Part shown: piece by piece, positions 4,678 to 47,139 of the stretch
Position numbering within the stretch: position 1 is the first letter of the stretch
Layout: every line of letters starts with the position of its first letter
NCBI GenBank assembly: GCA_964187785.1
Contig: OZ076409.1
Coordinates: 14,014,001 to 14,078,000, forward strand
From: Amphiscolops sp. MND2022
Lineage: Eukaryota
DNA: 64,000 nt
Direction: 5' to 3'
Made by a program: the position numbers and the translations under genes
Notes under the pieces: model-generated
Databases searched by the model: none
What the model was told of the DNA's origin: nothing
What the model saw: only the letters and a program-made list of their open reading frames with translations

Positions 4678-4777
4678 TATACTTTCTCAGCATCATTTGT
4701 TCCTCACCTAAAAGTTCCAAGATTTTGGGATTCCTAGCAACTTTTAGGTGAGGAACAAATGATGCTGAGAAAGTATA
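4678..4777. repeat. Perfect 39-bp inverted repeat with 22-nt loop inside solo LTR
   Basis: 4678-4716 tatactttctcagcatcatttgttcctcacctaaaagtt is the exact reverse complement of 4739-4777. Confidence 0.95.
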
Positions 4778-11821: not shown

Positions 11822-11948
11822 GTTCCTCGTAGCTATCGACCATTTCTCTACTACAATACTTTCTTATGTTCCTCGTAGCTATCGTCTATTCTGTTACAGC
11901 GGTACTTTCTAAAGATCCTCGTAGCATTTGTCTATGCGCTGTAATCCC
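11765..11948 (+). repeat. Tandem repeat, 4 x 46 bp (TACTTTCTTATGTTCCTCGTAGCTAT...)
   Basis: Units start at 11765, 11811, 11857 and 11903. Confidence 0.9.
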
Positions 11949-15403: not shown

Positions 15404-15603
15404 NNNNNNNNNNNNNNNNNNNNNNNNNNNNNNNNNNNNNNNNNNNNNNNNNNNNNNNNNNNNNNNNNNNNNNNNNNNNNNNNNNNNNNNNNNNNNNNNN
15501 NNNNNNNNNNNNNNNNNNNNNNNNNNNNNNNNNNNNNNNNNNNNNNNNNNNNNNNNNNNNNNNNNNNNNNNNNNNNNNNNNNNNNNNNNNNNNNNNNNNN
15601 NNN
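15404..15603. other. Assembly gap (200 N)
   Basis: Run of exactly 200 N; the round size suggests a scaffolding placeholder. Confidence 1.
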
Positions 15604-24632: not shown

Positions 24633-25756
24633 TGGTGACAGGAGAAAACGAATCTCCAACTGATATTCCTGAGTTTCTCACGGGACGAATGCCATCAAGA
24701 AGTCATCTCAACCGATCTCATGATGACCTCAATCCCCTGCTCGACACGACGATCCCAGCACAAGAAAGGACCGTTCCGGCCCCGGAACAAGACCCTATCA
24801 ACAGGCTAGCTGATGTCTTGACCAGTATGCAGAGCCGTCCAACAGCCCAACAACCCACTATCCGCCCAGTCAACTCAAACACTATGACTTTTGACGGCAA
24901 AAGCAAGAAGTTCGGGCTGTTCGTATATCTATTCCACACGATGATCAAGTTGATGTCCGAGCAGATGAAAATTAATCATTTTCATTCGCTTTTGAGAAAA
25001 AACGCTCTGCAAACATTCCGAAACATTAGCACAGCTAACAGACAAACTCTCGAGGACGTATTAGTCATCTTCAGAGGGAAATACGTCAAACCCGAATCTC
25101 AAGCAACTGCCAAACATAAATGGCACCGTCTGGTATTTGATCCAAATACGACAAAACTACCACATTTTTTTGAAGAGCTGAATCAAGGCGCAGAAAAAGC
25201 ATTCGGAGACCATGCCCAAAAGATTATTGACAGTCTCCTATACGCAAAACTGCCGCCCAAGCAAAAAAGATCAGTAAATATGGCCAGATTAGAGAACGGC
25301 TCCTATGACGAAATTGTCGCTCATCTTGAGAGAGAATTGGAGCTAAACGCGCTTGAAGAATCTGATGACCTACCAATGGCATCAATGACGTCTTCAGCCA
25401 CAAAAACAAAAACTGTTCCATCAAACGTCCAAATGAGTGACATTACCTGCAACTATTGCAAAGAAAAGGGCCACATCGTCAAAGACTGTGAAAAGCGCAA
25501 AAAGAAGAAGGAGAAAGATGCCCAACAAGGCAAGCCCACACAGAAAAAGGTTTATCCTAAATGTGGGACATGTGGCAAGACAAACCACCCTGAGGAGAGA
25601 TGCTGGCAAGGTGCTGGTGCGCATCTCAAGCCCAAACGCACCAGGCCAGAGGACTCGTCGGACAGCGATCCTGACCCCAAATCCTCAAAACCCCATCACA
25701 AGCCAACATCATCCAATTCCCAATCCTCATCAAGCAAAGATGAGCCAAAAAACTAA
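24038..25756 (+). CDS. gag: Gag, 572 aa, two zinc knuckles
   Basis: CNYCKEKGHIVKDC and CGTCGKTNHPEERC; capsid-like region homologous to D Gag (FDGKS.KF.LF..LF, KINHFHSLLR); ends at the A AAA AAC TAA slippery site. Confidence 0.92.
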   Translation: MPTTRKQKKTRKSRGVEIISDIENVDMMLGENHFSRNERDESLSSNQTRRPESTFGDQFETNDENRYLNSRNDGLSPNADYGQNSAGGNSSAEINRLSSELNSRISREMDEMMNSVSVQIQRAINDAISNQVLPQIQNAIVAGSGHLTRERWNVPAERPEGYSEVLRNSDSRDNSRSKPFMDCQKDGPTTSTNARAYDMVTGENESPTDIPEFLTGRMPSRSHLNRSHDDLNPLLDTTIPAQERTVPAPEQDPINRLADVLTSMQSRPTAQQPTIRPVNSNTMTFDGKSKKFGLFVYLFHTMIKLMSEQMKINHFHSLLRKNALQTFRNISTANRQTLEDVLVIFRGKYVKPESQATAKHKWHRLVFDPNTTKLPHFFEELNQGAEKAFGDHAQKIIDSLLYAKLPPKQKRSVNMARLENGSYDEIVAHLERELELNALEESDDLPMASMTSSATKTKTVPSNVQMSDITCNYCKEKGHIVKDCEKRKKKKEKDAQQGKPTQKKVYPKCGTCGKTNHPEERCWQGAGAHLKPKRTRPEDSSDSDPDPKSSKPHHKPTSSNSQSSSSKDEPKN

Positions 25757-26996
25757 CTTCGCCACGACTCCAATACAACCAACTAATATCTGTCCGACAA
25801 TACATCAGATCGGACCCTCCAACGCAAACTTTCCACCAATATAACCAACAATTGATGGGCTATCCTTCTGTTGTCTGGCAGCAGCAGACGGAGAAAGCTC
25901 TTATTATTACTTATAATAATACCCATTTGTTCCAGAAACCAATTCCTGTTTGGGACCCTGATTACACAACTACCTTTACTACCCGATTCAGGCCCATTCC
26001 CTTAGTAGACGACTACAACCCTACATACATCGACCCAGATTATGGAAGAGATCACTACTGGGACACTGAGATCTGCAACCAGGATCTATTGCAATTTCAA
26101 TATGTTCTAGACGATATTGAACATTGCAACAAGACAGTCCACGAGAACCCTCCAATTACCCATAACAAGAAAACCAGAGCGCTAAACCATCCGGTGTTTC
26201 CAAACCCCTTGGGAACCGCGAATATCGAAAACTGTGCAGAATCAATTCCACAATCGCTACTAGACGAGAGACAGTTCCAGAATGTACTCATTACCAAAAA
26301 TGGTGAACCAGACTGTATACCCCTGTCAACCAACAGTAACCTTAAAACTCAGATCTTGCATCGAGTTCGCCTCAAAAAGTTTGTCCCCAATCAACCGCTT
26401 GAGGACATTTTCCGAGAAGAGCGATTACTGCCGGACGAAGAAATTGTCATTCCGCAGGACGATTTGTACACAGTTACGTGGGAAACAAACTTTGGTGAAC
26501 AGCTAGCTACACGAGGCAACGAGCCTATTCCGGCTAGCTTGCCGAATGAAGAAAGACCGAGTACGGCAAAAGCGAACGCAGATAACGCAAGCGAGAATGA
26601 AGCGGATTACATAATCACGACTGATTGTCCGAATGACGTCAACGATACAGAGCACAGTCGAGATAAACGACTGAAAAGTGACGTCAGCAATGCAAATGAA
26701 GATAGTGAAGCTACTAGAAATGAAAACTCTGATTGGCCGGATTCGGCCGTTTACCACAAAAATCCAGAAAAATCTTTGCCGGATCTGTCCGAAAGACAAG
26801 AAAACAATGCAAATGTTTCAGAACGAAATTCTGCTAATGAAAGCGATGCACAAAAATCTCCAAAAAGGGGGATGATATTATCGTGCCCGAAATATCGCAA
26901 AATGATGAAAGGAATGAAAATCTGAGTCCTAGAGGTGGAAGATATAATTTGAGACCTAATCCTAATCCAAACTACTCAGAAGACTTCAGATACTAG
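25747..26996 (+). pseudogene. pol: Pol remnant: pre-protease region fused in frame to integrase C-terminal tail; late frameshift
   Basis: The -1 frame is open from the slippery site (KKLTSPRLQYN...). DCIPLSTNSNLK|TQILHRVRLKKFVPNQ joins segments matching D Pol DYIPLMSAITLK and TQTLHRIRLRLYAPNQ. The tail GRYNLRPNPNPNYSEDFRY (shifted frame) matches D GRYNLRPNPRPNAHPDFR. Confidence 0.88.
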
Positions 26997-28390
26997 GAAA
27001 AGATTAATAAGCGTCCAAGAAGGAACACTGCTCTCTTTTCTTCTTTTCCTTTCCATTTTTAAAGTCCTTCCTCCCTCTGCTTCTACCTCTCCTTCTACTT
27101 CTCCTCCTACTGCATCTACCCTTCTTCCTTCTTCGCCATTTGTCTCTTGGTCGCTTATGAATGATTCAGCGATCTGTGACCCTTCTGGCAATTGAGTCTC
27201 TGCATGGAGTCTGACCATTTCGTCAGCGTAAGCTGTAACATCAACACTGTCAGTATTACTTGGAGACCTCTCTACTCTAAGAGGAAGAATCGGGGCGGTG
27301 AAAACACAGCAGCCTGACTTGTACCCACGGGTGAATTGGGATCTGGTGTTCGAGTAGTCTCTTTGTTCTGATTCTATAAACAGAAAGAGATGAAATTTGG
27401 CGGTTAGCTTCCTTGAAAGAAATCCATTTTGCCGCGTCAGAAACCTTTCGAAAGTGTTCTAAAAATTTGAATGAAACGTGTTATCACGTGTTTAGTGATG
27501 GAAGCAGGAAGCATTTTGTGAACAAATTTTAACCCTGATCAAGTTGAATTAGTTCAAAATAAAAATCCAGATCAACTTGTGTTTGAAGACATCCTGCAGT
27601 GATGGAAACTCCTTCTGGGTAACCGTCCTCATTCGGCTGGTGAAGTTGGGGAAAGTGGCCGAGCTCGGCTGAAAAGAGGAAGATGCCCCGGAATACTCCG
27701 AGGAAGATGTAGTCGGCAACTGTGTTGGAACCCAAATGGACGTACATAACAATGCAGTACATAGATAGGGATGCCGAAAGAATTCAAAATTAAAAGAATA
27801 CAAATCGTAATGGAATTGGAACTAAATGGGAATAAATGACAATCCTAGAGATTGAAAGTTGGAGTTCGTGGCTGAAGAGACTACCGGATTAATATTTTAT
27901 GGCTATTTACGAATTTAAAACTGTGCATGGAGTCTGCCAGCGAAATGTACAGAAGATTGCTCATTATTTACAAATTAGTTAGTTAGAAGCCGATTATGGC
28001 CATTTACCTTGTTCCGTTTTGCCGTTTTGTTCCGTTGCCCTTATTACCATTTAGTTAGAATTTCCGCATTCTGGATTATTTTAGTTATTATTTTCACCAT
28101 TTTACTATCCAATTTCCATTTTATCGAAAGTCAATTTTGATTGGCTAAAACGATTTTAAGAGAAACCTTTGGTGCGTGCCGTTAATTGCCTCCAAGCGAC
28201 TCGTTAATTACCCACTTGAGACGAGTGTATTTGATATTAACATCTTGAACATTGTTCACACCTATTCTGATGACGGGAGTGATAAGGAGATCAACACCAA
28301 GAGGTGAGCCGGCCTACGTCACAGCAATTATGAAGGAAGCTTATTTGAATGGACTTAATGCAGGGTCGTTTTTATTTATTCCACCCGCAG

Positions 28391-30572
28391 TGTCGCAGGC
28401 TGCCTCCTGCAAATTAACCAATCACAGTGCAGTATAGCTAGTATTAGTATTATCTCTCAGCAATACATTATGTGGCCGGTTATGGCCGCTTGCCTTAATC
28501 TAACTACTATGCTCGTGAACGCTGGTCCAATGGCCGGTTCCGGCCTATTTAGCTTTTATCAAGTAATCTGTGCTATTTAATCAGTAGTGCTGTGTATTTT
28601 CTTGGAAAGTACTTGAAGCTGTCTTAATACGTCAGATGCCATGATTAAAAGTGTTAGAAGAGGTATTGGTAATTGTTTTAATTATAGTTGCTATTGATAA
28701 AATCCCGTACCAGATACGTCACTTGAGCACGCGGCCTTGTCCAATCAAATTACTCCATTTGCTACGCAGTTAATACTTCCATTCATTAATGGCCGAGTAA
28801 GGCCTGTGGACATAACTTCGCTACTTTTAATAAATATCCAGTCAGACGGCCGGTTCCGGCCATTTCACAAAAAGCGCAATTGTGATGCTAATTATTAACC
28901 AGGATTCATGTGCTTGTACTCTTAGGCTGAATAACCCCTCTAGTGCAGTATTACCTAACTACACCACAGACTTAGCTCTTTCAGACGGTTAAGGCCGTTT
29001 GACCAGTATTTTAATAATGTTTACTTAATACGAGGCAATTAGCCTATTCAGGCCAGATTGTGTAAAGCGCTGTACACATTTTTAATTGATTGGCCGTATA
29101 TGGCCACTTGACGTTATATTAGATTGGTAATGCAGGACAAAAGGCAAATGGCCGGTTTAGGCCATTTTGCTTTTTATTATTAGAGATGCTTTTAAGCATG
29201 AATGAGTTTGTTTTACAGTCATGTAAGATTATATTTATATACTTGAAGATGTTAATGAGCTTTTTAAATCCAATTAGTGCAATAATAACGACCCGTAGTA
29301 GCAATCCGAATACCCGTCACCTGTCCTATTCCGGCCTTCACTATTGGCCAGCTCCCAAGTCCAATGGCCGTATTAGGCCATATTGCTATATTATGTTCAT
29401 TTCTATTGCATGAAACTGTGTCTTTGTTTTGTTGATTCTACGCACGTGTGTAGGCACGTGCCGCTAAATAGTTTACATTCCTCTCACTGTAAACAATTTG
29501 AAAGTATTAGTTTTGATGTTTGGTCAAAGTGTTGTTTGCCTAATATAATAAGGCTAAATTCCTCCGCTCCCCTTTGATGATAGTATTTGCAGTTAGAAAA
29601 TGCTTTTGAGTGCATTCCATATTTTATGTAAACTTTAAATGATTTTGCTGCGAATGAATTAGGTATGAATTCCCTTTGGCCCTAACGGGACAAATTCCTA
29701 AGTGCTTTGATGCAGTTGACGCCGCTAAAAATGAATGAATGTTAGTGGTCACCCGCCATGGTCATGTGCCCTTTATGGAATTTGTAAATAGATTGTCATG
29801 CAAGGAATGTGAGTGTCACCCTCTCAGGGGTATATATATTGGTATTTTTCCGAGAGGGACACAATTGTATTTTGCTTCTCCAAGTTTAGTTTGATATACC
29901 TGTTTACGATACAACGTACAAAATCCTATTTTCCGAATAAAACCTAATTCACTGTTTTACCTCGGACTTTCTTTCTAATGCCTACAACAAGAAAGCAGAA
30001 GAAAACCAGAAAATCTAGAGGAGTTGAGATAATTTCGGACATTGAAAATGTAGATATGATGCTCGGAGAAAACCATTTCAGTAGAAATGAGAGAGATGAA
30101 AGCCTCAGTAGTAATCAAACCAGAAGACCTGAAAGTACTTTTGGTGATCAATTTGAAACTAATGATGAAAACAGGTACTTAAATTCAAGAAATGACGGAC
30201 TTAGTCCAAATGCCGATTACGGCCAAAACTCTGCTGGAGGTAATTCTAGTGCTGAGATAAATAGACTGTCGAGTGAATTGAATTCCCGAATATCTAGAGA
30301 GATGGACGAGATGATGAATAGTGTCAGTGTTCAGATACAGAGAGCCATAAATGATGCAATTAGCAATCAGGTTTTACCCCAGATTCAAAATGCCATTGTG
30401 GCCGGATCGGGACATTTGACCAGAGAAAGATGGAACGTTCCGGCCGAGAGACCGGAAGGATATTCCGAAGTTCTGCGAAACTCAGATTCCAGAGATAACT
30501 CGAGAAGTAAGCCATTTATGGACTGTCAGAAAGACGGTCCAACTACATCCACAAACGCGCGTGCTTACGACA
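28391..30572 (+). repeat. 3' LTR of element B
   Basis: Direct repeat of 22451-24632, followed by TSD CTTGG. Confidence 0.97.
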
Positions 30573-30592
30573 CTTGGCAAGATCTTAGCTAA
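29978..30592 (+). CDS. 3'-LTR copy of Gag N-terminus (198 aa) reading 6 codons into flank
   Basis: Identical to Gag B up to ...NARAYD, then TWQDLS*; expression unknown. Confidence 0.5.
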   Translation: MPTTRKQKKTRKSRGVEIISDIENVDMMLGENHFSRNERDESLSSNQTRRPESTFGDQFETNDENRYLNSRNDGLSPNADYGQNSAGGNSSAEINRLSSELNSRISREMDEMMNSVSVQIQRAINDAISNQVLPQIQNAIVAGSGHLTRERWNVPAERPEGYSEVLRNSDSRDNSRSKPFMDCQKDGPTTSTNARAYDTWQDLS

Positions 30593-31031: not shown

Positions 31032-31517
31032 TGTCACGACCCGCTCCCGGTCGGGATTACTCTTGCTGCAGTGGCGTGCAGGAATTCAAAAGGGGGAGAG
31101 GACACGGAAGGCCCAAGCAAAGCTAAGTAAAATACTGAACTTACCTTGTCTAAACTACAGCACGAACTAAGGATTAACGGAAGCGCAACGTGAAATATCC
31201 AAAAATGATCTTGAGCAAAATAGGACTTCCGATTTAAAGTTCTCACATGTAATCACTTTACTACATCCGGTTTTGTTTCTGAAAAATCCATGACAATCTA
31301 AATACTAAAAAGAAACATTCATAACACTGGGATCAATTTTCGTCCTCTCCACACTGAAATGAAAACATCAGTTAATTCCGTGGTCCCAACGGAATGCATG
31401 TGATCTAAAATAAGGAAAATACAGAGAGAATTTAATAGACTTGTTTCCAAAGTCTGAAGTAGTTGTTAAAAGCCACTCAAATTACAGTCAAGTAATTTGA
31501 ATAAACCTTTACAACGC

Positions 31518-31662
31518 TATGGCAACGTCAATCAGATAAACAAGTTGCTGGTATTCCTGATTTAATGAACCAATAGCGTCGCTGCTAAGGACGGAATGTT
31601 TGCGCTCGAGCTAGTAAGGACCATTCTAATGACGTCATTAAGAACGAATTTAAAGATGGCGA
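31518..31662. promoter_or_regulatory. Motif cluster in D LTR: RFX-like half site, CCAAT, CRE palindrome, YY1-like AAGATGGCG
   Basis: CTATGGCAAC, AACCAATAG, AATGACGTCATT and AAAGATGGCG. TGACGTCA and CCAAT also occur in the solo LTR (5089-5155). Function not shown. Confidence 0.45.
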
Positions 31663-31692
31663 ATTGCTCCGCTCTAACTTCGCTAGCTGCTA

Positions 31693-31880
31693 AGCTAATC
31701 TTAATACGCACGTAGCATCTACGGGACGAATTGTAAGCTAAAGAAACTATAGCTAATCTTAATACGTACGTAGCATCTACGGGACGGATTGTAAGCTAAG
31801 GAAACTATAGCTAATCTTAATACGTACGTGACATCTACGGGGAAGATTGTAACTTAGCAAAACTATACTTAATGTTAATA
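31693..31880 (+). repeat. Tandem repeat, ~3.3 x 58 bp in D LTR (also 45546-45733)
   Basis: Units AGCTAATCTTAATACG(C/T)ACGT... start at 31693, 31751 and 31809. Confidence 0.92.
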
Positions 31881-32803
31881 CATGCAAAATAACTGTGGAA
31901 AAATCTGAGACTTAAGGACTAGTACAGCAGATCAAGACATTCCTTGGAACACGTAGAATTTTGTTAGGACAACCAAAATATTGTAGGATTCAATTATTTC
32001 CTCCCGATTTTCTCTGTTCTTTAAGCAATCTAAACGTTCGTGCTGTAGGACCAAGGCAAAAGTGAATTTCTTAATGGAAGGTGCTTTTCTTACTTTTAAG
32101 AAAATGATTTACGTACTCAGTACGTCTTAAAATGTTGTTGCTTTCCATGTTGTTTGTTATTTTGTAACCATGTTTGATAGCATTATGTAAAAATCACGCA
32201 GGTTTATCGTTGCCAATTTCTGGTTTATAATAACCAAATTTCAGTTTGTATTTGTCGCTTTCTCGGTATCATTTGTTCCTTATCAAACATTTGATTTCAG
32301 TAATCCAAAAACTTAACCGAAATATTTCCGTGACGAATTTCGCTTGTCACTCTGTTGCTGCAAGTTGAAAATCTTGCCGCTCATAAGATGAATCATTGTT
32401 CATGCCCGCGTGCCTTTCGTGATGGAAGTTTAACTAGACATTTATTTTGCCGCTCTTTTGAGATTAAACCGGAAATGAGGATGATGAACAAAAATGAATT
32501 CAACAAGTATTCCGCGAAAGGGACGTGACTAGGAATTTTAAATTATGAACAACTAGTTAAAGGGTTGAAATAATAAGGATGACTAAGTGATTTTTATGAA
32601 CAAAATGGATTTTTAGGATTCCTAGGAATTTTTAGGTGAGGAACAAATGATGCTGAGAAGGTATATATAGTTGTAGATACTTTGAAAAGTTTAATCAATC
32701 TTTTGTTTCCCAATTAATCAATTTGTTCTGTTGATACAATAAAACTCGCTTCTTCGACGAATTAACATATTTCCGAAGACTTCTCTACTATAAACTTCCA
32801 AAG

Positions 32804-34216
32804 ATGACTACTAGAAGCCAGAAAAGAAAAGCAGTTGAAGAATTAGTCTCTACTGAAATCGAAACACCGGTTCCAGAAATTAGTCTGAGCGAGAATCCCG
32901 TAGCAGGAACAAGCAAATCTCCTAGAGTCATTTCTGAAAACCTAGAAAATATTAAATCGGCTCTTAGAAAAGAGATAATGACCGATCTTACTAAAATCTT
33001 AGCCGAGAACCAGAAGGAAATGCTAAAACTGATAGCTCCAGTAACTAAAAAACAAACCCTAGTTAGAGCTTCTGAAGAAACTGATTCTGATCCCGAGAAC
33101 ATCCCGGAAAATGCAACATCAACACCTATAAAAACCAAATCCACTGCGACTACTAATAGGATTACCCCGGTAAATAGTCGTAACATGGTGACAGGAGTCC
33201 TCAATGACTCAACGAACCTCGGAAAGAAGAAAACACGACCGCATCGCCCACAAAGTTTGCCACCCAACGAACGGCCTTCGACATCACGACTACTCTTCGC
33301 TCCCCAACCGGAGATACACCAGCCACCCCACCTACCCCCAATGCCCAAAGCACTCACTGCATCATTGCCTGTATTCGATGGTAAGTCCGAAAAATTCGAA
33401 CTTTTCGAGGACTTATTCCGAAACAACATAAAAATGTACCCACACCTGACAGAAATTCAAAAAATCAACTATTTCCACTCACTACTACGAGGCAATGCAC
33501 TACAAGCATATTGCAACTTAGACGATGCCAAAAAAGATAACTTAGAGGAGGTAATTACGGCGTTTAAACGGCGCTTCGGAGACTTTCAATCTTCTGCCAA
33601 AGCGAGATGCGAATGGGACTCGCTACATTTTGACCCAACCAAACAAAAATTACATGAATTTTTGGATACACTGCAAAAAACGGCTAAGGAAGCGTTCGGC
33701 TCTGAAGCACAAAAATTTATAGACAAGGCCATATACGCCAAAATGCCAGACCACGTCAAAAAGATCCTCAACCGAGCCTACCTTGAGGACAAACCCTATA
33801 ATGATATTGTCCTACATCTCGAACGAGAGATGCGCCTTAATGGCCTGGGAGCCCCAGACGAAACCACACTAGTACCACTAAATACGGTCGACGTCATCCC
33901 ACCGGAGCCAAAAAAGGAACTCACCCAAAGAGGAAGTTGCTTCCACTGTGGTAAACAGGGGCATTATAAAGCACAATGCCGCAAATTAAGGAAAGATCGT
34001 TACTACGAAACTAAAGCACAGAACGGTGTCCCCAAAACCATTGAACCACCTAAACCAAAGTGCGAAACTTGCGGCAAGCTCCACAAAACCGAGAACTGCT
34101 GGTACGGAGCTAACGCGGCGAATGACCCTCGGAAGAAACGTCATGAATTCACAATCCCTACCAGCCAAATCAGTGAACAACCAATCCCCACTGTTGAAAT
34201 CCAGCCAAAAAACTGA
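32804..34216 (+). CDS. gag: Gag, 470 aa, starts inside 5' LTR
   Basis: LPVFDGKSEKFELFEDLF capsid-like region; knuckles CFHCGKQGHYKAQC and CETCGKLHKTENC. Confidence 0.95.
   Translation: MTTRSQKRKAVEELVSTEIETPVPEISLSENPVAGTSKSPRVISENLENIKSALRKEIMTDLTKILAENQKEMLKLIAPVTKKQTLVRASEETDSDPENIPENATSTPIKTKSTATTNRITPVNSRNMVTGVLNDSTNLGKKKTRPHRPQSLPPNERPSTSRLLFAPQPEIHQPPHLPPMPKALTASLPVFDGKSEKFELFEDLFRNNIKMYPHLTEIQKINYFHSLLRGNALQAYCNLDDAKKDNLEEVITAFKRRFGDFQSSAKARCEWDSLHFDPTKQKLHEFLDTLQKTAKEAFGSEAQKFIDKAIYAKMPDHVKKILNRAYLEDKPYNDIVLHLEREMRLNGLGAPDETTLVPLNTVDVIPPEPKKELTQRGSCFHCGKQGHYKAQCRKLRKDRYYETKAQNGVPKTIEPPKPKCETCGKLHKTENCWYGANAANDPRKKRHEFTIPTSQISEQPIPTVEIQPKN
33186..33198 (+). promoter_or_regulatory. 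Primer binding site TGGTGACAGGAGT
   Basis: Immediately follows the LTR terminal CA; conserved in A, B and D; one mismatch from the tRNA-Leu(CAG)-type PBS TGGTGTCAGGAGT. Confidence 0.75.
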
Positions 34217-34262
34217 AAACGCCGCGCCTCCGCTTCGGGGAAACGGTAGACGCGAGGGCGTA
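34207..34262 (+). promoter_or_regulatory. -1 programmed ribosomal frameshift signal (A AAA AAC + GC-rich stem-loop)
   Basis: Heptamer 34207-34213 lies directly before the gag TGA. The -1 frame is open (KKLKTPRLRFGETVDAR...) into the pol ORF. Downstream ACGCCGCG...CGCGAGGGCGT can pair. Confidence 0.85.
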
Positions 34263-37200
34263 CACAATAGAAGACCCCCCCAATCACTACGAAGAAGACT
34301 TCATGACGGAATGCAACGAAGAACCAACACAGGACTGGCAACGTCGTTGGAACGTAGGCATGATACTTAGACATAATGCACGACACCCAGAAGACCCAAC
34401 ACCACTACCCCAATGGATAACAGAATCGCCCGATAACTACGCGACACTAAAAAGACCCTTACCAGAATCAAAGACCGAACGCATTTACATATACGATAAA
34501 GACTATAGATGTGATCCCTGGGATGAACCAGCCATCTATGACACAAACAAACTCTCTTTTAAGATCCAAGTTTCAAATCCTCAAGCTCAAGTCACCGAGA
34601 GTACAACCCTACCAACACCTTTGTCACCAATCCTAAAAAAGACAACACAGTCCTCGCCAACACCCGTCACCACCACGTACACACCAATAGATGCAGAGAA
34701 TATTATCTGCATTGAGGATAAAACAATATGGTCACAACAAGCAAAAGAACAACGCGGAGTAGCCGACCAAATAGTATCACCCCCAACAACAGCATCTGAA
34801 TGGCCAAATCAGAACAACAATCATGAAGACGACGAAGTAACGGAATGCCCACATCAACTACCATACGATCTCAACATCATAAAAGAATTCATACAACATG
34901 ATAAAGATGACGATTACATCCCGTTAATGTCGGCAATTACCCTCAAAAAGAAGAAAAGAATGCTCTTTATTCCTCTTGACTTTGAAAACACTAGAATTGA
35001 TGCATTAGTCGACTCGGGAGCCTACATCAACGTCATCAGCGAAAGAGACGCAGACAAGATACAAAACGAAGCCAACGCGACCATACTTGCAAAGGCACCT
35101 CCGCCCCCTTTCAAGATACAATATGCCAACACAGAACTCGAAAAAGCCCGTGCAACATACACAATGCAATTCAAAATCGGGGATTACGCGTTTGAGGAGA
35201 CCTTCATCATCATGACCAAAACATCTTACCCAATCATTGGCCTGGCATTCCTCCGGAAACATTCCGCAATCCTAGATACTGCACAAGGAACAATAGACTT
35301 TCCCAAAATACAAATCACTCTAGCCCTAAAAGATGAAAGACAGAAGTGCAATCCCAAACCCATCACTATCAAAACGGAAGAAAAACACACCATACCAGCC
35401 CAAGCCACACGGATCATCCACGCCTCCATCACCACAAGCAATGACCACTCAATAACGGGGACAGTCCAACCTTTACCACAGTTCGATGAAAATGCAAAAC
35501 TCATAGTAGCCCCAGCAATAACAACAGCCCGAGACAAACGAGTTGCTATAAAAATAGCGAACACCACAGACTTCCCCTATACAATAACGCCACATACGAA
35601 ACTAGCAGAATTACAAATATTGAAACCCGAAGAAACGAAATTGATACGAGCAGTAGACATAGCAGCCCTCAATCTACTCACCGAACATGACGATGTTGTT
35701 GCGTACGTTAATGCACTGATGCAAGTTGATTCGTCAGAACAAACAGAAGAGAAATTCTGGTTCCCAACTCCCGAAAATCCCGGAGATGAATCGGAACACA
35801 CACCCATCCAACAACGCATTCTACGAGAACTACGCGAACTACAAAGATTAGAAGAACTGGATCCCAAACAAGACGAAAAATCCAGAACACAATTCCTCTC
35901 GCTATTCAAATGGAATGATTCACTAATAACGGGAGAAGACCGTGAAAACCTAGAGTCCACCCTAGTCGAATTCAATGACATTTTTGCACGTCACCGACTG
36001 GACATCGGAATGAACAACCAGTTCAAGGTATGCCTAACTCCCAAAAACGACAAACCGGTATATACACAGAGTCTCCCCGTACCCATCAACCTCAAAGACG
36101 ACCTCACAGTAGAATTGGCACTGATGCACAAATACGGGATCATCACAACCCTCCCATTCTCGAAATATGCCAGCCCCATCTTTGCACAACGCAAACCCAA
36201 CGGCAAACTACGCCTCCTAGTAGACTTACGGAAAATCAACGCCCTCATTTCAGATGACTACATAAACAACAACCACCCCATCAGCACCCTCTCAGACGCC
36301 GCACAACACCTAGCGGGGAAACAGCTGTTCTGCAAACTAGACTGCTCACAAGCCTATCACTGCCTCCAAATGGCAGATCAAAGGTCAGTAGAACTCCTTG
36401 CATTTAATTTTGCTAGTAGAACGTTTGCCTATCGTAGGCTAGCCCAAGGACTTAGTAGAGCCTTGTCAGCCTTTTCGAGCTTCATGCGGGAATACCTTGA
36501 CACCGTCATCAAAGCAGACCAGTGTGCCCAATATGTGGACGACATTGGAATCGCCGCCAACACAACGGAACAACTCATTAAGAACATCAGAGCAGTCTTC
36601 AAATGCATCCGCAAGGCAGGACTAAAACTCACAATTGAAAAATGCCACTTTGGTGTCACCCAAATCGAATTCTTAGGAAGAACCATCACACCCCACGGAG
36701 TAGCACCGCAAGAACACAAAATCACCAACTTCTTATCAAAAATCAGATTTCCCCGGTCAAAGAAACAAGTCCAGAAATACATTGGATTCATCAACTACTA
36801 CCGAAACTACATACCAAGACTGTCTGAAAAAATGATTGGAATGTATGAACTCCTAAAAGCAGATGCCAAAATCACCATATCAGAAGAGTTAGTCGACAAC
36901 TTCAAAGCCATCAACGCGAGCTTAGCGGAAGCATGTGGGCTAGCCCTCAGACAACCAGTTGCGGGAAAACAATACGTACTAATGACGGACGCAAGCTTCC
37001 GGGCATCAGGTTATGCCCTAATGATAGAAGAAAACGACGATAAAAAGCTACTCTCCAAACGGAAAACTTTCGCACCGGTCGCTTTTGGTTCCCGCGTATT
37101 CTCACCGTCGCAACTGAAGATGTCGATATACTGTAAAGAATTCCTTGCAATATATCATGCATTCCTTGAATACAGTCACATTCTCTGGGAAACAACACTA

Positions 37201-39423
37201 CCTACACTAGTACTGACAGACAACAGATCAGTAACGCGATTTTTCCAGACAAAAACAACGCCACCTGCTCTCTGGAATGCCTGCGACCACGTACTCCAGT
37301 TCAAATTCCGCATCATGCACGTAGCAGGCTCGCAAAATACAGCAGCCGACTTCCTGTCTCGACTCGAATTAACTCCAAAAGAGAGAATCCAACTCAAATT
37401 ACGAGACGACATCATAACGGCACCCATCGAGGTTAACCTACAGTCTACAGACGTTGCGGACGAAGAACAACTCTTTTTCCTGCCAGATGAAGAAGAGGAA
37501 TCAGAACAAGAAATTTTCGCCAGGAAAGCCCTTAGCAAACAACGAGCAATAGACGAAAAGGAACAACAAAACTTGACAACAGAAGTCACAGAAACAGTGC
37601 ACATACCTCTCAACTCAGCAGTATACGCCTTTGGAGCCATCAAGGAAAACGCCCGCATCCGCAACGAACAGGACGCGGACCCGCTATTGAAAGCATTGAA
37701 ACTACGGCTGCTTCACGAAGAATACGACAAACACCTTCTCAAGACCGAACCCAGAGGATGAAACCTACTACGTCACGAAGAAAGAATAATAGTCAAAGAC
37801 GGAGTACTCATGCGTAAATACTACGGAGAAGACGGCACAGTAACACACCACCAAATCCTCATACCGAAACATATAGTACCGGAACTCCTATCGACGCTAC
37901 ATGGAAAAATGAACAAACACCCAGGAATAACCAAAATGATTCAGGAAAGCCGAGCAAAGTACTACTATCCGGGACTAGCGCGAAAAATTAGAGCCTGGGT
38001 AATCAACTGCCCAGATTGCATAGCCAACAAACGAATCGACACGCGCCAAATACGTCCTAAAATGCTGAGCAACACAGAATTCACATTCGGACCAGAAGAT
38101 TGTCTAGAAGTCGATATACTACCAAATCTACCCTCATCAAACGGATACAAACACATCATAACCATGATGGACGTTTTCTCCCGCTATTTATTTGCATACC
38201 CCACTCAAGACATGACAGCCAGAACAGTCGGACGATGCATAATTGACGTCATGACGCGTCATTGTTATCTGCCTACAGTGATTCTGACTGATAAAGGATC
38301 ACAATTTCGATCAGATGTCGTGAACCAAATAACACAAACACTGAACATACGGATTAGCCACGCGTCAACAAAGCATGCACAAACAATCGGCATACTCGAA
38401 AGAACGCATGCATCTCTAAAGACTTCCCTCAAGATATCAACGGGAGAACGTCGTTCAATGTGGCACAAATATGTACAAATTGCAGTAATGAACTACAACA
38501 CCAGTTACCACGAGAGCCTAGGATGCGAACCGACAACCGTATTTCACGGACGCATTCCGTACAACATCCTGGATATCAAGCTGGGACTCAAGCCAGAATG
38601 GAAAAAAGATGCTAACGAAGACCTAACGGACGAATTACAAAAGCAAATCGCTGAAATCCACCAGTCAGCCAAGGACAACCTCATGCAATCATATTTGAAG
38701 TATAAGCGATACTATGATAAAAAAGCGACAGCAACGCCATTGAAAATCAATGACTACTGCTACGTCCTGAACCCGAAGGCTGATAACCAGTCAATGAAAT
38801 TCGCATTCAAAGAATGCATTTGGACAGGACCATATATAGTGGTCAAAGTCCTTTCCAATAACAATTACGTCGTAAGACGGACAGGAACTAGATATACGCA
38901 AACCCTCCATAGAATTCGCCTAAGGCTATACGCGCCCAATCAACGAGTACCTGACGTAACAGTCAAAGTGGAAGATCAGCTTCCAGACCCCGAGGTTAAA
39001 ACAACCCACGATGATTGGTACGCGCAAGCTTGGGAAACCGAATTCGGAGAAGTTCTGTTCGGAACCCCAACGGAAAACGACAATGAAGAAGCTACTATCA
39101 CGGAAGTACAAACTGAAGACGGAGATACAACGGACCATGAAACAGTTACAACAACCGCAGAAGAGAATACAATGATGGATAAAACATCTTCCGGAGACAA
39201 CACGTCCCTCAACTTAGACGTCAGTGAAAACCCTTTCATAATGACCCCGCCACCTACAGAAAGTCCCCCAATACCGCCCACATTGCCGCCTATAGTTGTC
39301 GGATACAATCCTCGAAAAACGGGAAGATATAACCTACGACCTAATCCTAGACCTAATGCACATCCTGATTTTCGGATGCTCGACGCTATCACTACGGAAG
39401 AGAATTCTCAACCTCAACACTGA
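34207..39423 (+). CDS. pol: Pol polyprotein (protease, RT, RNase H, integrase) with a single in-frame TGA at 37759-37761
   Basis: ALVDSGA; YVDD; TDAS/KEFLAI/TDN/AADFLSR; HHCC zinc finger, VDI...TDKGSQF...ILERTH and WTGPY. ORFs 34303..37761 and 37810..39423 are in the same frame. Confidence 0.95.
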
Positions 39424-39625
39424 ATAAAAACGATCAGAGAACCAAACTGAACCGGAGTGGCAACGGTAAATTTTCAACTCATAACTAAGCTACGCAAGAC
39501 AATTGGACAACCAAGGTGCCCCGAAAGAATAAATCAAAGCATCACACAAGGCAGAGCCAAATAAATAAATAAAGCATCAAGAAACAACTCAACATCAAAT
39601 CAACGATATCATAGCATTATCTGTT

Positions 39626-42600
39626 TCATGGCTTTCCCAGTTTGTGAACGACGTCTGGATCACAGATATCACCTTTTTTGTTCTTCTTAGACCCCTTTGA
39701 ACCACCAGCCCTGCTCTGTTTTGATGAAGCTGCTCCACTTCCTTTATCGCTACCTTTAACAGCCGGACGAACAACGGGCACATCCGCCTTCACAAATTTT
39801 GTAACCGATGGTTTATTGGTCGACTTCCTCGAACTAGCAACAGAACTCGCCACACTTCCAACCTCAGTTGAACTAGAACAATGTCTTTCGCGAGCACTTC
39901 GATTCGCTTTGTTCGACTCCACATAAAATGCCTCGCACTCCTTCCGTCGCTCCGAGACATGACGACAATACAGCGATTCATAATGTTTAATGAACGCATC
40001 CATATCGCCCACGCAGAAATCCTTCCACACGTCAAAGTCAGTAACCCTGAAGAAGTCGCCAGCATTCAGAAGAGCATCGCGGATAACGGACAGGAGTGAA
40101 CCAGAAAAGAATAACCGAGCATTAAAACTAGGCCCGATAATATGGGATTGCACCATCAAAATGCACTCTTGCAGAACAGACGACTTCAGCGTGCTACCAC
40201 CCAAATCTATCGTCACAGCAGGAGGGTCACTCTTCGGCAATCCAACGAAAAGGCAACATAACTTGAATAGCCGAAATACGTGGACTCGGGACTGGAACGC
40301 AAAATCCCGTAACAGGAAACTAATGACATCATCAATGTCACTCGCAGCACACGTAGCATCCTCGTGATGTCGCCGTTTCTCAATGACATAACTTTTAAAC
40401 TCAGCAGAAGCAGCATTCAAATCGTCCGGTGTCATAACGCGACAAGATCTCAACAAATCACAGAGGGAACCAAACAATTCGAATATGTGAAGATCATCGC
40501 CCTCCAACATAATTTCAGGACAGAAGCTGTAGAGTCCGCGAGAAATACCAGAAGTAACAGCAGTGCTTGACACAATTAGTGAGACAACACGATCAATACA
40601 TTCACGACACTTCACCCGAAAATCTTGCACGTCGCCAGTCTTGATTGCAGACAACCCTCGCCCAAACTCACTATCCATTAAGAATTCGCTCATAGAAATC
40701 TGATCGAACCCAGAGAGTTTTGAAACATCCATATAACTCTCCCACTCATGTATCCCAGGCAAACTGGACAACTTGCGAGTCCGCATCAGGAGGCAATAAA
40801 CGAAGTTACAGACCTCGCCGTAACCATGGAAGGCGTAATCTTTACGGCCTTGACGAAGCTTCTCAAAGTTGAAGTAATCTAAAACGAAACACGCTCGTCA
40901 ACAAACACACATCTTGCCTCCAGGACACAGCAATCAACAGAAATTGAACGCAATAACACCAACACAATAAAGAAAGCCAATCAACAAAAGACAACAGCCA
41001 ATTGAAAGACCATACTCCTAACGAAACGTCTTCGTACTTACAAGAATCCAACAGCAGCCGAAGGAAGCCAAAGCGATGCACAATGAGACTGTCGGAGACC
41101 AACTCGAAGTCCGTACCACGCAACTGAAATAAATAACACACCATCAAAATCAAATAACAAAAGAGGAAGACAAGCAACTATAACCGAAAAAAAAAATTAC
41201 AATATAACAGCACTCACCCGATCAACGGTACTCTTGAAATGCGGATGTCCCGTGTACCGAATGAAGGGACGTATGGAAGGCCACAGCTCAATCAGATCAC
41301 TTAAGATCTCCCGCAAGTCGCAAAAGGCCACAGAACCCGCACGTATGGTTGCACGCAGAAGAGGCTTGTCCTCGCTCCAGTCTTCATACAGAGCCCCTTT
41401 CAACCGATGGATTATATATTCCACTGCTGTTGTTATCTCAATCATTCCGAAAATATCCTGGTGAGCTTGGCGAAAGCACTGCAAAAACACCTCTTCATCA
41501 AAGGATTGCCAAGACACAAAGCGACGATCATCAGTTCTCCCTGCGTCCAGCACCCGAAACAGCGAAGGACTGGCACCACAAATAGATACGGGCATCTGTT
41601 GCCCCTCCAAGCAGTTCACAACTCGGGCCAACGGAAGCAATTCAGGGGCAGGCATCCTTTGGTCGAGAGTCTCATTGCCCACACAAATCTTTTTCAAAAC
41701 AAGCCCGTCCCAGCACAGAACATAGCACCGCTCGACATGACCAGACTTCTCAAATTGCACCCCGTACTCCTTAAAGGCCTTGATGTCGCTAATCATCAGC
41801 CGAAGAACCCGAGGGGCCAGCCCTTGACAAAGAAACGACTAAAATACGTACAACCGACCTCACTCCCAAATTACTGAAAATCATCATCCCTCCCCCACAC
41901 GAACAAACTACGAAATTAAACTGGCATAAAAAGAAGGAAAGAAACGAAAAAGAAGAGAAAACAACAGACTAACCACAGTCTCCGAACGGCTCCAACGCAA
42001 AGGAAAACACGGCTCCCGTTCGTCCAAAGTTGCACAAAAATGGCCCCACAGACGACGAAGATAGTCGAAGTCGCCACCATTACGAAGAAACTCGCAAAAG
42101 CAGGAAACCAGGGTCATGAAGGGCACATTTGAGTCAGGCTTAGAGTGTTTGGGAACCAAGTCTTCTGGAAATGGGTACTCTTCACCCAGGTCACAAAAGG
42201 GCCGTGACTTGTAATCCGCCAGCTGTCTCTCTGACAATTCCATTGGTTCCATCAAACGGTTCAAAACTTGCAACCCCATGTGGACGCGATAGGTTACGTC
42301 TTTGAACCAATGGGCATCTGATTGGAAATGCCTCCTGAACTCGCCAACGCCCTGGGACCTCATGGCTACATCACGTTGACAGACTCGACAATTGAAGTGG
42401 GTTCCCACAGCCTTTTTGGAGCCCGTCACAAAATCGGGGAAGGCAGGATGACGACTCAACATCCGACGATGGAGTATGTTGCGACTACCATACGTCTTCA
42501 CCACTTTCTTCGTCAATTTTTTCTCGACCCTTCCGCTGAACTCCTGCAACTCTGTAAAACAAAATACAAAAATAGACACACAGATGAAACCCAAACTCCG

Positions 42601-43706
42601 AACCACTCAACTGCTCGCAACAGCGTAGCCACCGAATACACACCGTTCAACCGAAAACCAAAAATACTAACCATTCTGGATAGCCAAACTGGTACCCTCC
42701 TTCACTTCTTCCACCAGCCGTTGACCAAGGCGCACCACGTCCTGAGGACTTAACATCACACCACCAGAGCGATACAGCTGCTCCTCATCGTTACCTGAAA
42801 CAACAACGGATGTTTAATGGCAACTTAGAGAGAATATCACCCACCCGAAAAGTTCCTGACAAAATATGACAAACTATTCCTTTTTTTTCTCTTTTCTTCT
42901 TCCTTCTTCCAGCACCACAGAGGCAAACCAAACAACAAATGCGAAAAACAACATACTAACTAAGCCAGTTACCAGCAGCATTCATCAATGGTGGAGGAGA
43001 CGGTGGCAATAACACAACCTTCTTCCCACGTTTTGAAGGCGTAACGTCACCAACAGAAGCATCAGCCGAATTATCCCCGCGCAGAACTATAATATCAAAT
43101 ATACTCTGGTGCTACCACCTACATGACGTAAACATGACGCCAAAAGCAAACCTCACCAACCTGTTTTCCTCTTGCTGGGGGGATCTGTCTCACCTCCTTG
43201 AGACTCACTATCGCTGCTAGTAGCGACAACAAGGCGAGTAACAGGACTACTAGTCTCGGGAAGAGTATTGGCAACTTGAGGAGAAACCTCAGAGCAAGAA
43301 GCGACAACTCCGGAAGCACACAATACACTGCTCAACGCATCATTGACGCTGCAAGTAGACTTGGGCGGCAGAATAGTTGAAACTGACGGCAAAACATTAG
43401 CAACAGTGGAAGATACGCCCGTAGCAGGCACGGAAACAGTCACTGTCGGGATGCCAGGTTGAGCTACTGAAAATCAAGATCTGGTTTGACGCGTCAGGGT
43501 TACGGGTAAAAGACTACAAAAGGCTGATCACCAAAAGAATAGTCAAAATACCCATGAAAGTCAGAAAGATTTTACCAACCTGAAGAAGTAATAACAGCAT
43601 CTACATCTGAGAAAACCACATCATCATCGGTATAGCAGAAATTTGTCTCATTTCCACTCACAGTACCAGCGACTGCACCAGATGAAGGAACAACAGCGTC
43701 GTCCAT
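39626..43706 (-). CDS. Antisense 8-coding-exon gene, ~1067 aa: S/P/V-rich N-terminus, C2H2/BED-like zinc finger, inactive hAT-transposase-like body, basic tail
   Basis: Exons (minus): 43706-43580, 43466-43161, 43086-42973 (alt. donor 42961), 42794-42672, 42551-41974, 41838-41218, 41123-41042, 40878-39626. All 7 introns are GT..AG; phases 1,1,1,1,0,0,1 are compatible; total 3204 nt with no internal stop. Confidence 0.82.
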
Positions 43707-44268
43707 AACTCGGAAGATTACAGAAGTCTTCAAGAGAATCTGAAAAAGAAGAAAACAAATAATCAAAGAAAAGAAAAGGAGAAAAACTACGTCGTGCTCC
43801 CGTAAAATTTTGGAAAAATAACAACATCATCCCTGTGTGACTAAAGAAATGTACATATTTTAACTTCAGTAAAAGCCCTTTGCGGCACCGACGGGACAAA
43901 ACGTTCCCACGAAAAATGCTACTGAAGAATCAAAATTCACCAGGAAGTTCTGAAGAAAAAGCTTAACAAATTAAAATTTACGAGAGATAGACGTTATTCT
44001 ACCTAAAAGAAACGAATGACGTCATTGAACCGATGACCGAAAAGGAAACAGATATTAAATTAGAAGAGTTTTCCTAAAGCTACAACCAATCGCAGCGAAA
44101 ACGGAGAGGAAACGGCTCACCGGATTAGGTCGGATCGAAACGAAAATAAAAAATCAACCAATAGGATTGCAGCACGAGGTACGAAAAGAAGATCACTAAA
44201 CAGTCATTTGTCGTATAACTTTACAAAGAACAGCTTGTTCAGCTTAAAATCTCTACCAAACTACCGAA

Positions 44269-44979
44269 ATGGAAAGTTTTCATCAACGAAGCATCATCGA
44301 CATTTCGTCTGATGAAGAATCCACTCCGTTGCAGCAGAGTACTCCAATCAAGTACTACCCTTTAAACGTAGTACAAGCCCTCAATTTGAGCGAAGAATCA
44401 ACGACGGCTAAAATGGGAAGTGAATCCAGCATGGACATAACAGCGTCGACATTTGAGTCCGGCCCCTCCCCGTATAAAAGAATCACTTTCTCAGCCACAC
44501 GTGACGAAGAAAGAGAAGAATTCTCTGTGGAAAGGCCGCCGATAACAAACTCCGAATCAAGTTTTTATGAAGAACTCGAGTCGTCTGATGAAATGCCCCG
44601 CCTAACTCCCGCACCCACACTGAGAGAGGTGACGAATACGTTCCAGGAAGATTACGTCCCCCCTCCGAAGACGACTAAACTAAATGATTTAGAAGAACCA
44701 TCTGAAAATGAATTGGAAGACATCTGGGGTTTAAAGCCTAACGAGGATGACTTCTACTCGCTAGCTGGACGCGGTAGCAGCTTTACATCGAAAAAACTAC
44801 AAAGGAACATCAGACAACCCGTGACGGTAGTGAAAGAAATTCCTCACTGCTCTGGACTGCCAACTTTTCGTGCCAGAGGGGCCCTGTCACGACCCGCTCC
44901 CGGTCGGGATTACTCTTGCTGCAGTGGCGTGCAGGAATTCAAAAGGGGGAGAGGACACGGAAGGCCCAAGCAAAGCTAA
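44269..44979 (+). CDS. Extra sense ORF X, 236 aa, acidic/Ser-Pro-rich, overlapping start of 3' LTR; unknown function
   Basis: Uninterrupted ORF, ATG in context GAAATGG, preceded by CRE and two CCAAT boxes; no recognisable domain. Confidence 0.55.
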   Translation: MESFHQRSIIDISSDEESTPLQQSTPIKYYPLNVVQALNLSEESTTAKMGSESSMDITASTFESGPSPYKRITFSATRDEEREEFSVERPPITNSESSFYEELESSDEMPRLTPAPTLREVTNTFQEDYVPPPKTTKLNDLEEPSENELEDIWGLKPNEDDFYSLAGRGSSFTSKKLQRNIRQPVTVVKEIPHCSGLPTFRARGALSRPAPGRDYSCCSGVQEFKRGRGHGRPKQS

Positions 44980-47038
44980 GTAAAATACTGAACTTACCTT
45001 GTCTAAACTACAGCACGAACTAAGGATTAACGGAAGCGCAACGTGAAATATCCAAAAATGATCTTGAGCAAAATAGGACTTCCGATTTAAAGTTTTCACA
45101 TGTAATCACTTTACTACATCCGGTTTTGTTTCTGAAAAATCCATGACAATCTAAATACTAAAAAGAAACATTCATAACACTGGGATCAATTTTCGTCCTC
45201 TCCACACTGAAATGAAAACATCAGTTAATTCCGTGGTCCCAACGGAATGCATGTGATCTAAAATAAGGAAAATACAGAGAGAATTTAATAGACTTGTTTC
45301 CAAAGTCTGAAGTAGTTGTTAAAAGCCACTCAAATTACAGTCAAGTAATTTGAATAAACCTTTACAACGCTATGGCAACGTCAATCAGATAAACAAGTTG
45401 CTGGTATTCCTGATTTAATGAACCAATAGCGTCGCTGCTAAGGACGGAATGTTTGCGCTCGAGCTAGTAAGGACCATTCTAATGACGTCATTAAGAACGA
45501 ATTTAAAGATGGCGAATTGCTCCGCTCTAACTTCGCTAGCTGCTAAGCTAATCTTAATACGCACGTAGCATCTACGGGACGAATTGTAAGCTAAAGAAAC
45601 TATAGCTAATCTTAATACGTACGTAGCATCTACGGGACGGATTGTAAGCTAAGGAAACTATAGCTAATCTTAATACGTACGTGACATCTACGGGGAAGAT
45701 TGTAACTTAGCAAAACTATACTTAATGTTAATACATGCAAAATAACTGTGGAAAAATCTGAGACTTAAGGACTAGTACAGCAGATCAAGACATTCCTTGG
45801 AACACGTAGAATTTTGTTAGGACAACCAAAATATTGTAGGATTCAATTATTTCCTCCCGATTTTCTCTGTTCTTTAAGCAATCTAAACGTTCGTGCTGTA
45901 GGACCAAGGCAAAAGTGAATTTCTTAATGGAAGGTGCTTTTCTTACTTTTAAGAAAATGATTTACGTACTCAGTACGTCTTAAAATGTTGTTGCTTTCCA
46001 TGTTGTTTGTTATTTTGTAACCATGTTTGATAGCATTATGTAAAAATCACGCAGGTTTATCGTTGCCAATTTCTGGTTTATAATAACCAAATTTCAGTTT
46101 GTATTTGTCGCTTTCTCGGTATCATTTGTTCCTTATCAAACATTTGATTTCAGTAATCCAAAAACTTAACTTAAATATTTCCGTGACGAATTTCGCTTGT
46201 CACTCTGTTGCTGCAAGTTGAAAATCTTGCCGCTCATAAGATGAATCATTGTTCATGCCCGCGTGCCTTTCGTGATGGAAGTTTAACTAGACATTTATTT
46301 TGCCGCTCTTTTGAGATTAAACCGGAAATGAGGATGATGAACAAAAATGAATTCAACAAGTATTCCGCGAAAGGGACGTGACTAGGAACTTTAAATTATG
46401 AACAACTAGTTAAAGGGTTGAAATAATAAGGATGACTAAGTGATTTTTATGAACAAAATGGATTTTTAGGATTCCTAGGAATTTTTAGGTGAGGAACAAA
46501 TGATGCTGAGAAGGTATATATAGTTGTAGATACTTTGAAAAGTTTAATCAATCTTTTGTTTCCCAATTAATCAATTTGTTCTGTTGATACAATAAAACTC
46601 GCTTCTTCGACGAATTAACATATTTCCGAAGACTTCTCTACTATAAACTTCCAAAGATGACTACTAGAAGCCAGAAAAGAAAAGCAGTTGAAGAATTAGT
46701 CTCTACTGAAATCGAAATACCGGTTCCAGAAATTAGTCTGAGCGAGAATCCCGTAGCAGGAACAAGCAAATCTCCTAGAGTCATTTCTGAAAACCTAGAA
46801 AATATTAAATCGGCTCTTAGAAAAGAGATAATGACCGATCTTACTAAAATCTTAGCCGAGAACCAGAAGGAAATGCTAAAACTGATAGCTCCAGTAACTA
46901 AAAAACAAACCCTAGTTAGAGCTTCTGAAGAAACTGATTCTGATCCCGAGAACATCCCGGAAAATGCAACATCAACACCTATAAAAACCAAATCCACTGC
47001 GACTACTAATAGGATTACCCCGGTAAATAGTCGTAACA
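44885..47038 (+). repeat. 3' LTR of element D
   Basis: Direct repeat of 31032-33185, followed by TSD CATAT. Confidence 0.97.
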
Positions 47039-47139
47039 CATATTTCAAAAAAATTCTTACGGAAGACCGTCAAAAACTTGATGTAGAAACATTGAAACAT
47101 CTATTATTTCTGTATGTTAATTCATCCAAGTTGAATTGA
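46657..47139 (+). CDS. Chimeric ORF: LTR-encoded Gag N-terminus (127 aa) fused in frame to hAT dimerisation-domain tail
   Basis: ...ITPVNSRN|TYFKKILTEDRQKLDVETLKHLLFLYVNSSKLN*; expression unknown. Confidence 0.5.
   Translation: MTTRSQKRKAVEELVSTEIEIPVPEISLSENPVAGTSKSPRVISENLENIKSALRKEIMTDLTKILAENQKEMLKLIAPVTKKQTLVRASEETDSDPENIPENATSTPIKTKSTATTNRITPVNSRNTYFKKILTEDRQKLDVETLKHLLFLYVNSSKLN

Follow-up and report, generated by a model that had tools for sequence, protein, structure and literature searches.

A conserved antisense splice donor in the long terminal repeat of a Ty3/gypsy retrotransposon from Amphiscolops sp. and its possible use by an antisense cargo gene

A stretch of 64,000 nucleotides (nt) from Amphiscolops sp. 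MND2022 (contig OZ076409.1, positions 14,014,001 to 14,078,000, assembly GCA_964187785.1; hereafter the window, in whose numbering positions are given) was analyzed in this study. It contains a Ty3/gypsy retrotransposon, element D, that carries an antisense gene, referred to as the cargo gene, between pol and its 3′ long terminal repeat (LTR), and a conserved splice donor on the antisense strand of the LTR itself. We consider it fairly likely that the cargo mRNA begins with a short non-coding exon in the 3′ LTR, joined in cis by a 44998→43739 splice across the sense open reading frame (ORF) called ORF X. This interpretation is plausible, and better supported than before the present follow-up.

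Conserved antisense donor in the LTR

Element D is recently inserted, as indicated by its near-identical LTRs (5 of 2154 positions differ), their TG...CA ends, the CATAT target-site duplication, and a gag and a pol with the domain order of Ty3/gypsy elements in Pfam. A preliminary description of this DNA had reported a splice donor on the antisense strand of both LTRs, and its retention in a diverged solo LTR elsewhere in the window, and both observations hold. The word AAG/GTAAGT (the slash marks the splice boundary) lies on the minus strand of the D LTRs with its G at 44997 and 31144, LTR position 113, and on the plus strand of the solo LTR at 6800, LTR position 117, an offset of 4 nt. The expectation for AGGTAAGT is 0.026 per one strand of a 2154-nt LTR; five copies were found in the window against 1.56 expected, three of which are those of these LTRs.

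The two D LTRs were treated as a single observation in the conservation reasoning. Between D and the solo LTR, 245 of 379 positions (65%) are identical over LTR 96–474, and the donor falls inside a 10-nt identical run, the sole fully identical 10-column window among 417 in this non-coding part. Retention of eight given columns at the 65% background has a P of about 0.03 for this one D–solo comparison. The LTR donor also matches U1 at 8 of 9 positions, the best value among 215 minus-strand GT sites in 43741–47038 (5–7 of 9 for the coding donors of the cargo gene), and it shares +5G and +6T with all seven coding donors (GTTGGT twice, GTTAGT three times, GTGAGT and GTAAGT). We count the conserved donor as an observation, alongside the motifs and the open eight-exon frame of the cargo gene.

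ORF X reads through the junction between the internal region and the 3′ LTR and stops at LTR 93–95, and the solo LTR keeps a 30-codon open ORF X-like tail with its stop at the equivalent place. Among ORF X homologues the LTR-tail motif is present in 143 of 176 and the 30-residue tail in 120; a looser test found the tail in 156 of 188. Neither ORF X nor its homologues match a Pfam family. Predicted coding by ORF X accounts for the first 95 LTR bases, but the donor lies outside them, and LTR 96–474 lacks codon periodicity (p = 0.40), with gaps that are mostly not multiples of three. Because of this position past the stop and the missing periodicity, coding constraint was rejected as the cause of donor conservation. 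The LTR of one subfamily (P0191, six contigs) holds a 55-residue sense ORF that begins just over the donor position and is closed in D.

Acceptor, leader exon and proposed splicing

Downstream on the minus strand, the acceptor TTTCTTTTAG ending at 44003, the donor CTG/GTGAAT starting at 43940, the acceptor TTTTCTTCTTTTTCAG ending at 43740 and the ATG at 43706 are all present as previously described. The last of these acceptors is the most T-rich of the ten compared and has no partner among the coding exons. Two features had been overlooked, namely that 44003 doubles as a weak donor-like site (TAG/GTAGAA) and that an acceptor-like site lies at 43950. The middle exon proposed earlier (44002–43941) is doubtful because its donor lacks the +5G carried by all seven coding-intron donors. 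From the earlier proposal of an LTR-initiated leader spliced over ORF X, we retain the pairing of the LTR donor with the acceptor at 43740, to which sequence and comparative evidence point, and question the middle exon.

A 44998→43739 splice would remove all sixteen ATGs found between the donor and the cargo start codon; four of them, between 44207 and 43827, would remain if transcription began internally and the leader stayed unspliced. The nearest ATG on the upstream side of the donor stands at 45101 (D) and 6749 (solo LTR), which would fit a leader exon that is short and non-coding. Upstream of the donor is a TTAGT word that we take to be initiator-like; its A (45021) is 24 nt away from the donor, a spacing shared by the solo LTR. 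CGGAAG, presumably an ETS-like site, occurs at 45084 in D, 87 nt (D) and 114 nt (solo) upstream. Even at E values up to 5, Rfam matched nothing in 43600–47100, and a search for tRNA genes found none. A coding first exon was rejected, given that no ATG occurs in 45100–44998 and that an in-frame stop stands just before the donor of the solo LTR. An LTR-borne spliced leader (SL) RNA was also rejected, as the 24-nt putative first exon by eye does not resemble the spliced leader of S. roscoffensis in the accessible text of PMC9911081.

In the proposed mechanism, the 3′ LTR would act as a two-way promoter, with antisense transcription starting about 25–100 nt upstream of the donor (45020–45100). The short non-coding exon would then be joined 44998→43739 by removal of a 1258-nt intron that carries ORF X on the opposite strand together with the upstream ATGs, and removal of seven further introns would give an mRNA for a 1071-residue accessory protein. 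The cargo introns would outlast retrotransposition since the element is copied from sense RNA, which would not read them as introns; in keeping with this, donor-like hexamers in D number 24 on the G/T-rich antisense strand and 2 on the sense strand, a contrast to which base skew contributes. An LTR start is also favored by a second element of the window, element C, which has no cargo match and likewise no such antisense LTR donor. The start site, the use of the junction, the two-way promoter and the role of the protein are what we infer from these sequences.

The solo LTR contains several hundred extra bases (about 5627–6410) between its donor-side and CCAAT blocks. These extra bases set the putative antisense promoter apart from the main promoter.

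Antisense cargo gene

The cargo gene model runs from the ATG at 43706 to a stop at 39626 and has seven GT-AG introns of 74–166 nt. A relative encoded in one ORF (P0516, 890 residues) aligns to cargo residues 235–1057 with 28% identity (E 2e-67); it is unbroken across three cargo intron positions, and close to the exon junctions spanned, three in number, the gap columns of the alignment are 0, 5 and 1. This alignment supports predicted exons 5–8, and the open frame is the sole basis of exons 1–4. As a predicted model, the antisense cargo gene is real, and its place and orientation, antisense and flanked by pol and the 3′ LTR, are those of the class known as aORF-3R.

Homologues of the last cargo exon form 70 clusters of up to 95 members, all unnamed (from 7999 scored candidates, at the protein level only), and a profile search with the same exon returned 1024 representatives at E ≤ 0.001. 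The cargo gene is a multi-copy gene rather than a one-off capture, as seen at the protein level in these clusters. Related loci were absent from viral contigs, metagenome contigs and prokaryote genomes.

No Pfam family scored above the cut-off for the scanned cargo exon frames or their relatives. TRP28 (PF04195) had no match in the frames of exons 2, 5, 6 and 8 or in P0516, the small exons 1, 3, 4 and 7 being unscanned, and the basic leucine zipper (bZIP) domain had none in the scanned exon frames or in relatives. The predicted fold of the last exon (pLDDT 63) gave no structural match at E ≤ 0.001, with only single-helix matches at Z < 6. A CxxC...H...H motif, possibly a BED-type zinc finger of the hAT/ZBED kind, occurs at cargo residues 282–308 (exon 41974–42551, minus strand) and also in P0516, and weak atlas leads point to hAT/ZBED-like proteins (0.91 with 145 shared features; 0.79–0.82 for the others). 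These features suggest a transposase-derived DNA-binding protein, and the product is probably a nuclear, zinc-finger-bearing accessory protein.

Competing explanations

An indirect test of donor conservation across the family used 10 read-through or frameshifted tails chosen by eye from the 188 ORF X homologues; P0191 was left uncounted, its tail duplicating that of P0203. For seven of the 10 tails, and for 6 of 8 lineages, a donor hexamer 12–27 nt beyond the ORF X stop would fit: P0208 (T-Y-L, +19), P0203 (P-Y-L, +23, alternatively +27), P0431 (K-L-T-stop, +17), P0429 (N-L-L, +12), P0144 (D-stop, +17), and P0282 and P0301 (N-stop, +16). The fitting tails use different reading frames, a pattern expected under constraint at the nucleotide level. 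With random LTR DNA a fit arose in 884 of 5005 trials, so that 7 of 10 has P = 0.0004; with D decayed neutrally to 50% identity it arose in 1614 of 4904 (P = 0.018). The test lends modest support to donor conservation.

Several points weigh against an LTR start. In the same test, D decayed neutrally to 65% identity fits in 2031 of 4632 trials (P = 0.09), and three of the 10 tails do not fit (P0147, P0149 and P0216, of which P0149 stops at +9 and P0216 at +12); the footprint window and donor set were fixed after the tails had been seen, four anchors were placed by hand, and protein footprints indicate compatibility, not nucleotide sequence. The DNA comparison of the donor covers two independent sequences, and the LTR start and the 44998→43739 junction are read from sequence alone. 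No TATA box was found in the D LTR over 44885–45700, a block of CCAAT and CRE motifs lies 300–450 nt from the cargo ATG, and in maize the antisense gene23 of Grande has its own upstream promoter, according to the available text of PMC7264820.

The donor could be a functionless chance word retained by common descent, which we regard as very improbable. Its retention between two LTRs (P about 0.03) is not extreme, neutral inheritance at 65% identity accounts for the tails at P = 0.09, and the G/T-rich antisense strand of D, where base skew contributes to the excess of donor-like hexamers, offers many such words. Against chance stand the prior of 0.026 per LTR strand, the rank of the donor as best of 215 sites, its retention, and the unpartnered acceptor downstream.

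It is also rather improbable that the conserved bases serve another signal, either on the sense strand beyond the end of ORF X (a branch-like CTRAY, pyrimidines and YAG/CAC) or as a promoter-proximal U1 site that stabilizes antisense RNA without cargo splicing. In both D and the solo LTR, branch-like words do stand before the motif when the sense strand is read, and a CAGCACG run at LTR 127–133 is conserved too. However, the sense “acceptor” has 5–6 T in 15 nt compared with 7–12 in the acceptors of the cargo gene, the intron from stop to AG would measure 34–39 nt compared with 74–166 nt for cargo introns, and the unpartnered acceptor at 43740 would be left unaccounted for.

Transcription of the cargo gene could instead start at the internal block (44.0–44.2 kb), head-to-head with ORF X, with the LTR donor unused or of minor importance for the cargo gene; this main rival is unlikely in our judgment, although less remote than the two preceding explanations. 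The acceptor at 43740 would then take a weak local donor (44120 or 43940) or a trans-spliced leader. Two CCAAT boxes and a CRE palindrome, names that we assign by assumption, lie between the divergent ATGs, which are 566 nt apart, and the local donors match U1 at 6 of 9 positions, a value that falls among those of the coding donors. The acceptor at 43740 also looks like a trans-splice site, being U-rich, unpaired and close before an ATG. In the acoel S. roscoffensis, 30.2% of genes are SL trans-spliced (PMC9911081, text available in part), and internal promoters serve Grande gene23 (PMC7264820) and the env gene of Oikopleura Tor3b/Tor4b (PMC4402516) in the accessible text of these papers. An internal start, however, leaves the conserved, top-scoring LTR donor unexplained, and neither 43940 nor 44120 has the full +5G/+6T pair. 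ORF X, moreover, requires its own promoter or acceptor, and the block, 110–250 nt before its ATG, could be a candidate promoter of ORF X, possibly bidirectional. Trans-splicing in this host is an assumption. Internal and LTR starts may coexist.

Comparison with known antisense genes

Statements on other systems in this section follow the accessible portions of the cited papers. In HTLV-1 and HTLV-2/3/4, the spliced HBZ and APH-2/3/4 genes are transcribed antisense from TATA-less 3′ LTRs (PMC10186651), and bidirectional LTRs are widespread in retroviruses (PMC10186651, PMC2099442). The analogy to HBZ drawn in the preliminary description applies to layout only: in D, too, the space between main genes and 3′ LTR is occupied by an antisense accessory gene, with a spliced LTR start proposed. 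It does not extend to class membership. D is a Ty3/gypsy element and not a deltaretrovirus, its leader would be non-coding, and its 1071-residue product, predicted from a gene with seven coding introns, has no bZIP match in the exons scanned. HBZ starts in R/U5, whereas the D donor is at LTR position 113.

Plant and fungal gypsy elements are already known to carry antisense genes in the pol–3′ LTR interval (PMC11963269, PMC8365987), and D is an animal variant. Like the plant aORF-3R elements Grande (gene23), RIRE2 and Retand (PMC7264820, PMC11963269), D is a gypsy element with a conserved antisense gene in the interval between pol and the 3′ LTR for which a regulatory role is suspected; it differs in its animal host, multi-intron gene, nested sense ORF X and lack of a TRP28 match in the scanned exons. 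Grande gene23 is reported to be driven by an upstream promoter of its own (PMC7264820), and for D we propose an LTR exon instead. The brtn gene, which PMC8365987 and PMC7264820 cite from the Boty-like elements of Botrytis and Sclerotinia, is, like the cargo gene, an antisense extra gene of a non-plant gypsy element, in this case fungal.

A model for ORF X and the 44.0–44.2 kb block is provided by Oikopleura Tor3b/Tor4b, animal LTR elements in which a third, sense gene (env) is expressed from an internal promoter (PMC4402516). The Tor env product is a membrane glycoprotein, whereas ORF X homologues end inside the LTR and have no Pfam match. The available text of PMC4402516 mentions no antisense gene for Tor3b/Tor4b, and a literature search that was thin on subscription papers and excluded supplements found no description of the present animal element lineage.

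Transcription of antisense accessory genes in LTR retrotransposons is mostly unmapped, and a review recommends that antisense and spliced transcripts be looked for (PMC7264820, in its accessible text). D offers one exact junction, 44998→43739, in a lineage with hundreds of copies at the protein level. If an LTR start is correct, the deltaretroviral layout of spliced antisense genes initiated in the 3′ LTR would also occur in an animal gypsy element. It would follow logically that 5′ and solo LTRs produce outward transcripts, and many chimeric LTR–host transcripts would be predicted. In a strict scan of the flanks for acceptors, the 5′ LTR had one site (29982), and no site lay within 3 kb of the solo LTR. 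We put forward, tentatively and as somewhat doubtful, the broader idea that a large animal gypsy lineage independently evolved an HBZ-like design. A short stretch at the 5′ end of its LTR would encode the ORF X C-terminus on one strand, and on the other would provide a multi-intron regulator of transposase origin with its promoter and first exon. Each 5′ or solo LTR of this abundant lineage would be an outward promoter with a donor, able to add new first exons to host genes across the genome.

Other features of the window

Coordinates of the features are collected in Table 1.

Table 1. Features of element D, its cargo gene and the solo LTR (window positions)
Feature	Position	Strand	Description
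Element D	31032-47038		Young Ty3/gypsy retrotransposon; target-site duplication CATAT
5′ LTR of D	31032..33185	+	2154 bp, TG...CA; antisense donor copy at 31144; first ~127 gag codons
gag	32804..34216	+	Zinc knuckle; ATG within 5′ LTR (Pfam)
pol	34198..39423	+	Protease, reverse transcriptase, RNase H, integrase in this order (Pfam)
Cargo gene	39626..43706	-	8 predicted coding exons, 1071 residues, no internal stop
Cargo exons (gene model)	43706-43580, 43466-43161, 43086-42961, 42794-42672, 42551-41974, 41838-41218, 41123-41042, 40878-39626	-	Predicted
Strongest acceptor	43740..43780	-	14/15 pyrimidines; 12 T in 15 nt, 29 T in 40; 33 nt before ATG
Middle exon of the preliminary description	43941..44002	-	Doubtful; donor CTG/GTGAAT (6/9 U1) without +5G
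Internal promoter-like block	44014..44162	.	CRE palindrome 44017-44024; CCAAT (+) at 44086 and 44158
ORF X	44272..44979	+	235 residues; last 30 codons and stop within LTR positions 3-95; inside proposed first intron
3′ LTR of D	44885..47038	+	2154 bp
Antisense donor AAG/GTAAGT	44992..45000	-	G at 44997; LTR position 113; 18 nt beyond ORF X stop
Putative non-coding first exon	44998..45100	-	ATG-free to 45100; start inferred
Solo LTR	4157-6916	-	2760 bp; target-site duplication ACTAC; donor 6800; ORF X-like 30-codon tail

The pol of D is gypsy-type and contains an in-frame TGA stop (37759–37761) between RNase H and integrase, despite the young age of the copy, and a Pfam scan of D found no env or tax match. 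In the gag part of the LTR (32804–33185 in D, 4157–4530 in the solo LTR), 49 of 82 mismatches between D and the solo LTR fall at one codon position. Each D LTR has about three copies of a 58-bp tandem repeat (45488–45767 and 31635–31914), next to which lie a CCAAT box (45423) and, at 45483, a CRE palindrome with the same sequence as that of the internal region at 44017. Inverted-repeat arms occur at LTR positions of about 1227–1262 and 1600–1638 (about 46111–46146 and 46484–46522), and the arm sequence is present at 4682–4781 of the solo LTR as an adjacent long palindrome; these repeats may form an RNA structure for packaging or polyadenylation.

Element C (22451–30572) has near-identical LTRs of about 2.18 kb, a CTTGG duplication, a gag-like ORF and a second ORF, and no pol match was found in it. 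Like D, it has a gag-like start inside its LTR (29948–30592). A cadherin ORF at 59038–60501 matches animal protocadherins at about 30%, and two further AG/GTAAGT sites, located outside the LTRs (58427 and 62871, minus strand), lie near this gene on the opposite strand. An integrase fragment (14439–15650, plus strand) is located at a 200-N assembly gap (15404–15603), and 46-bp tandem repeats occupy 11756–11925.

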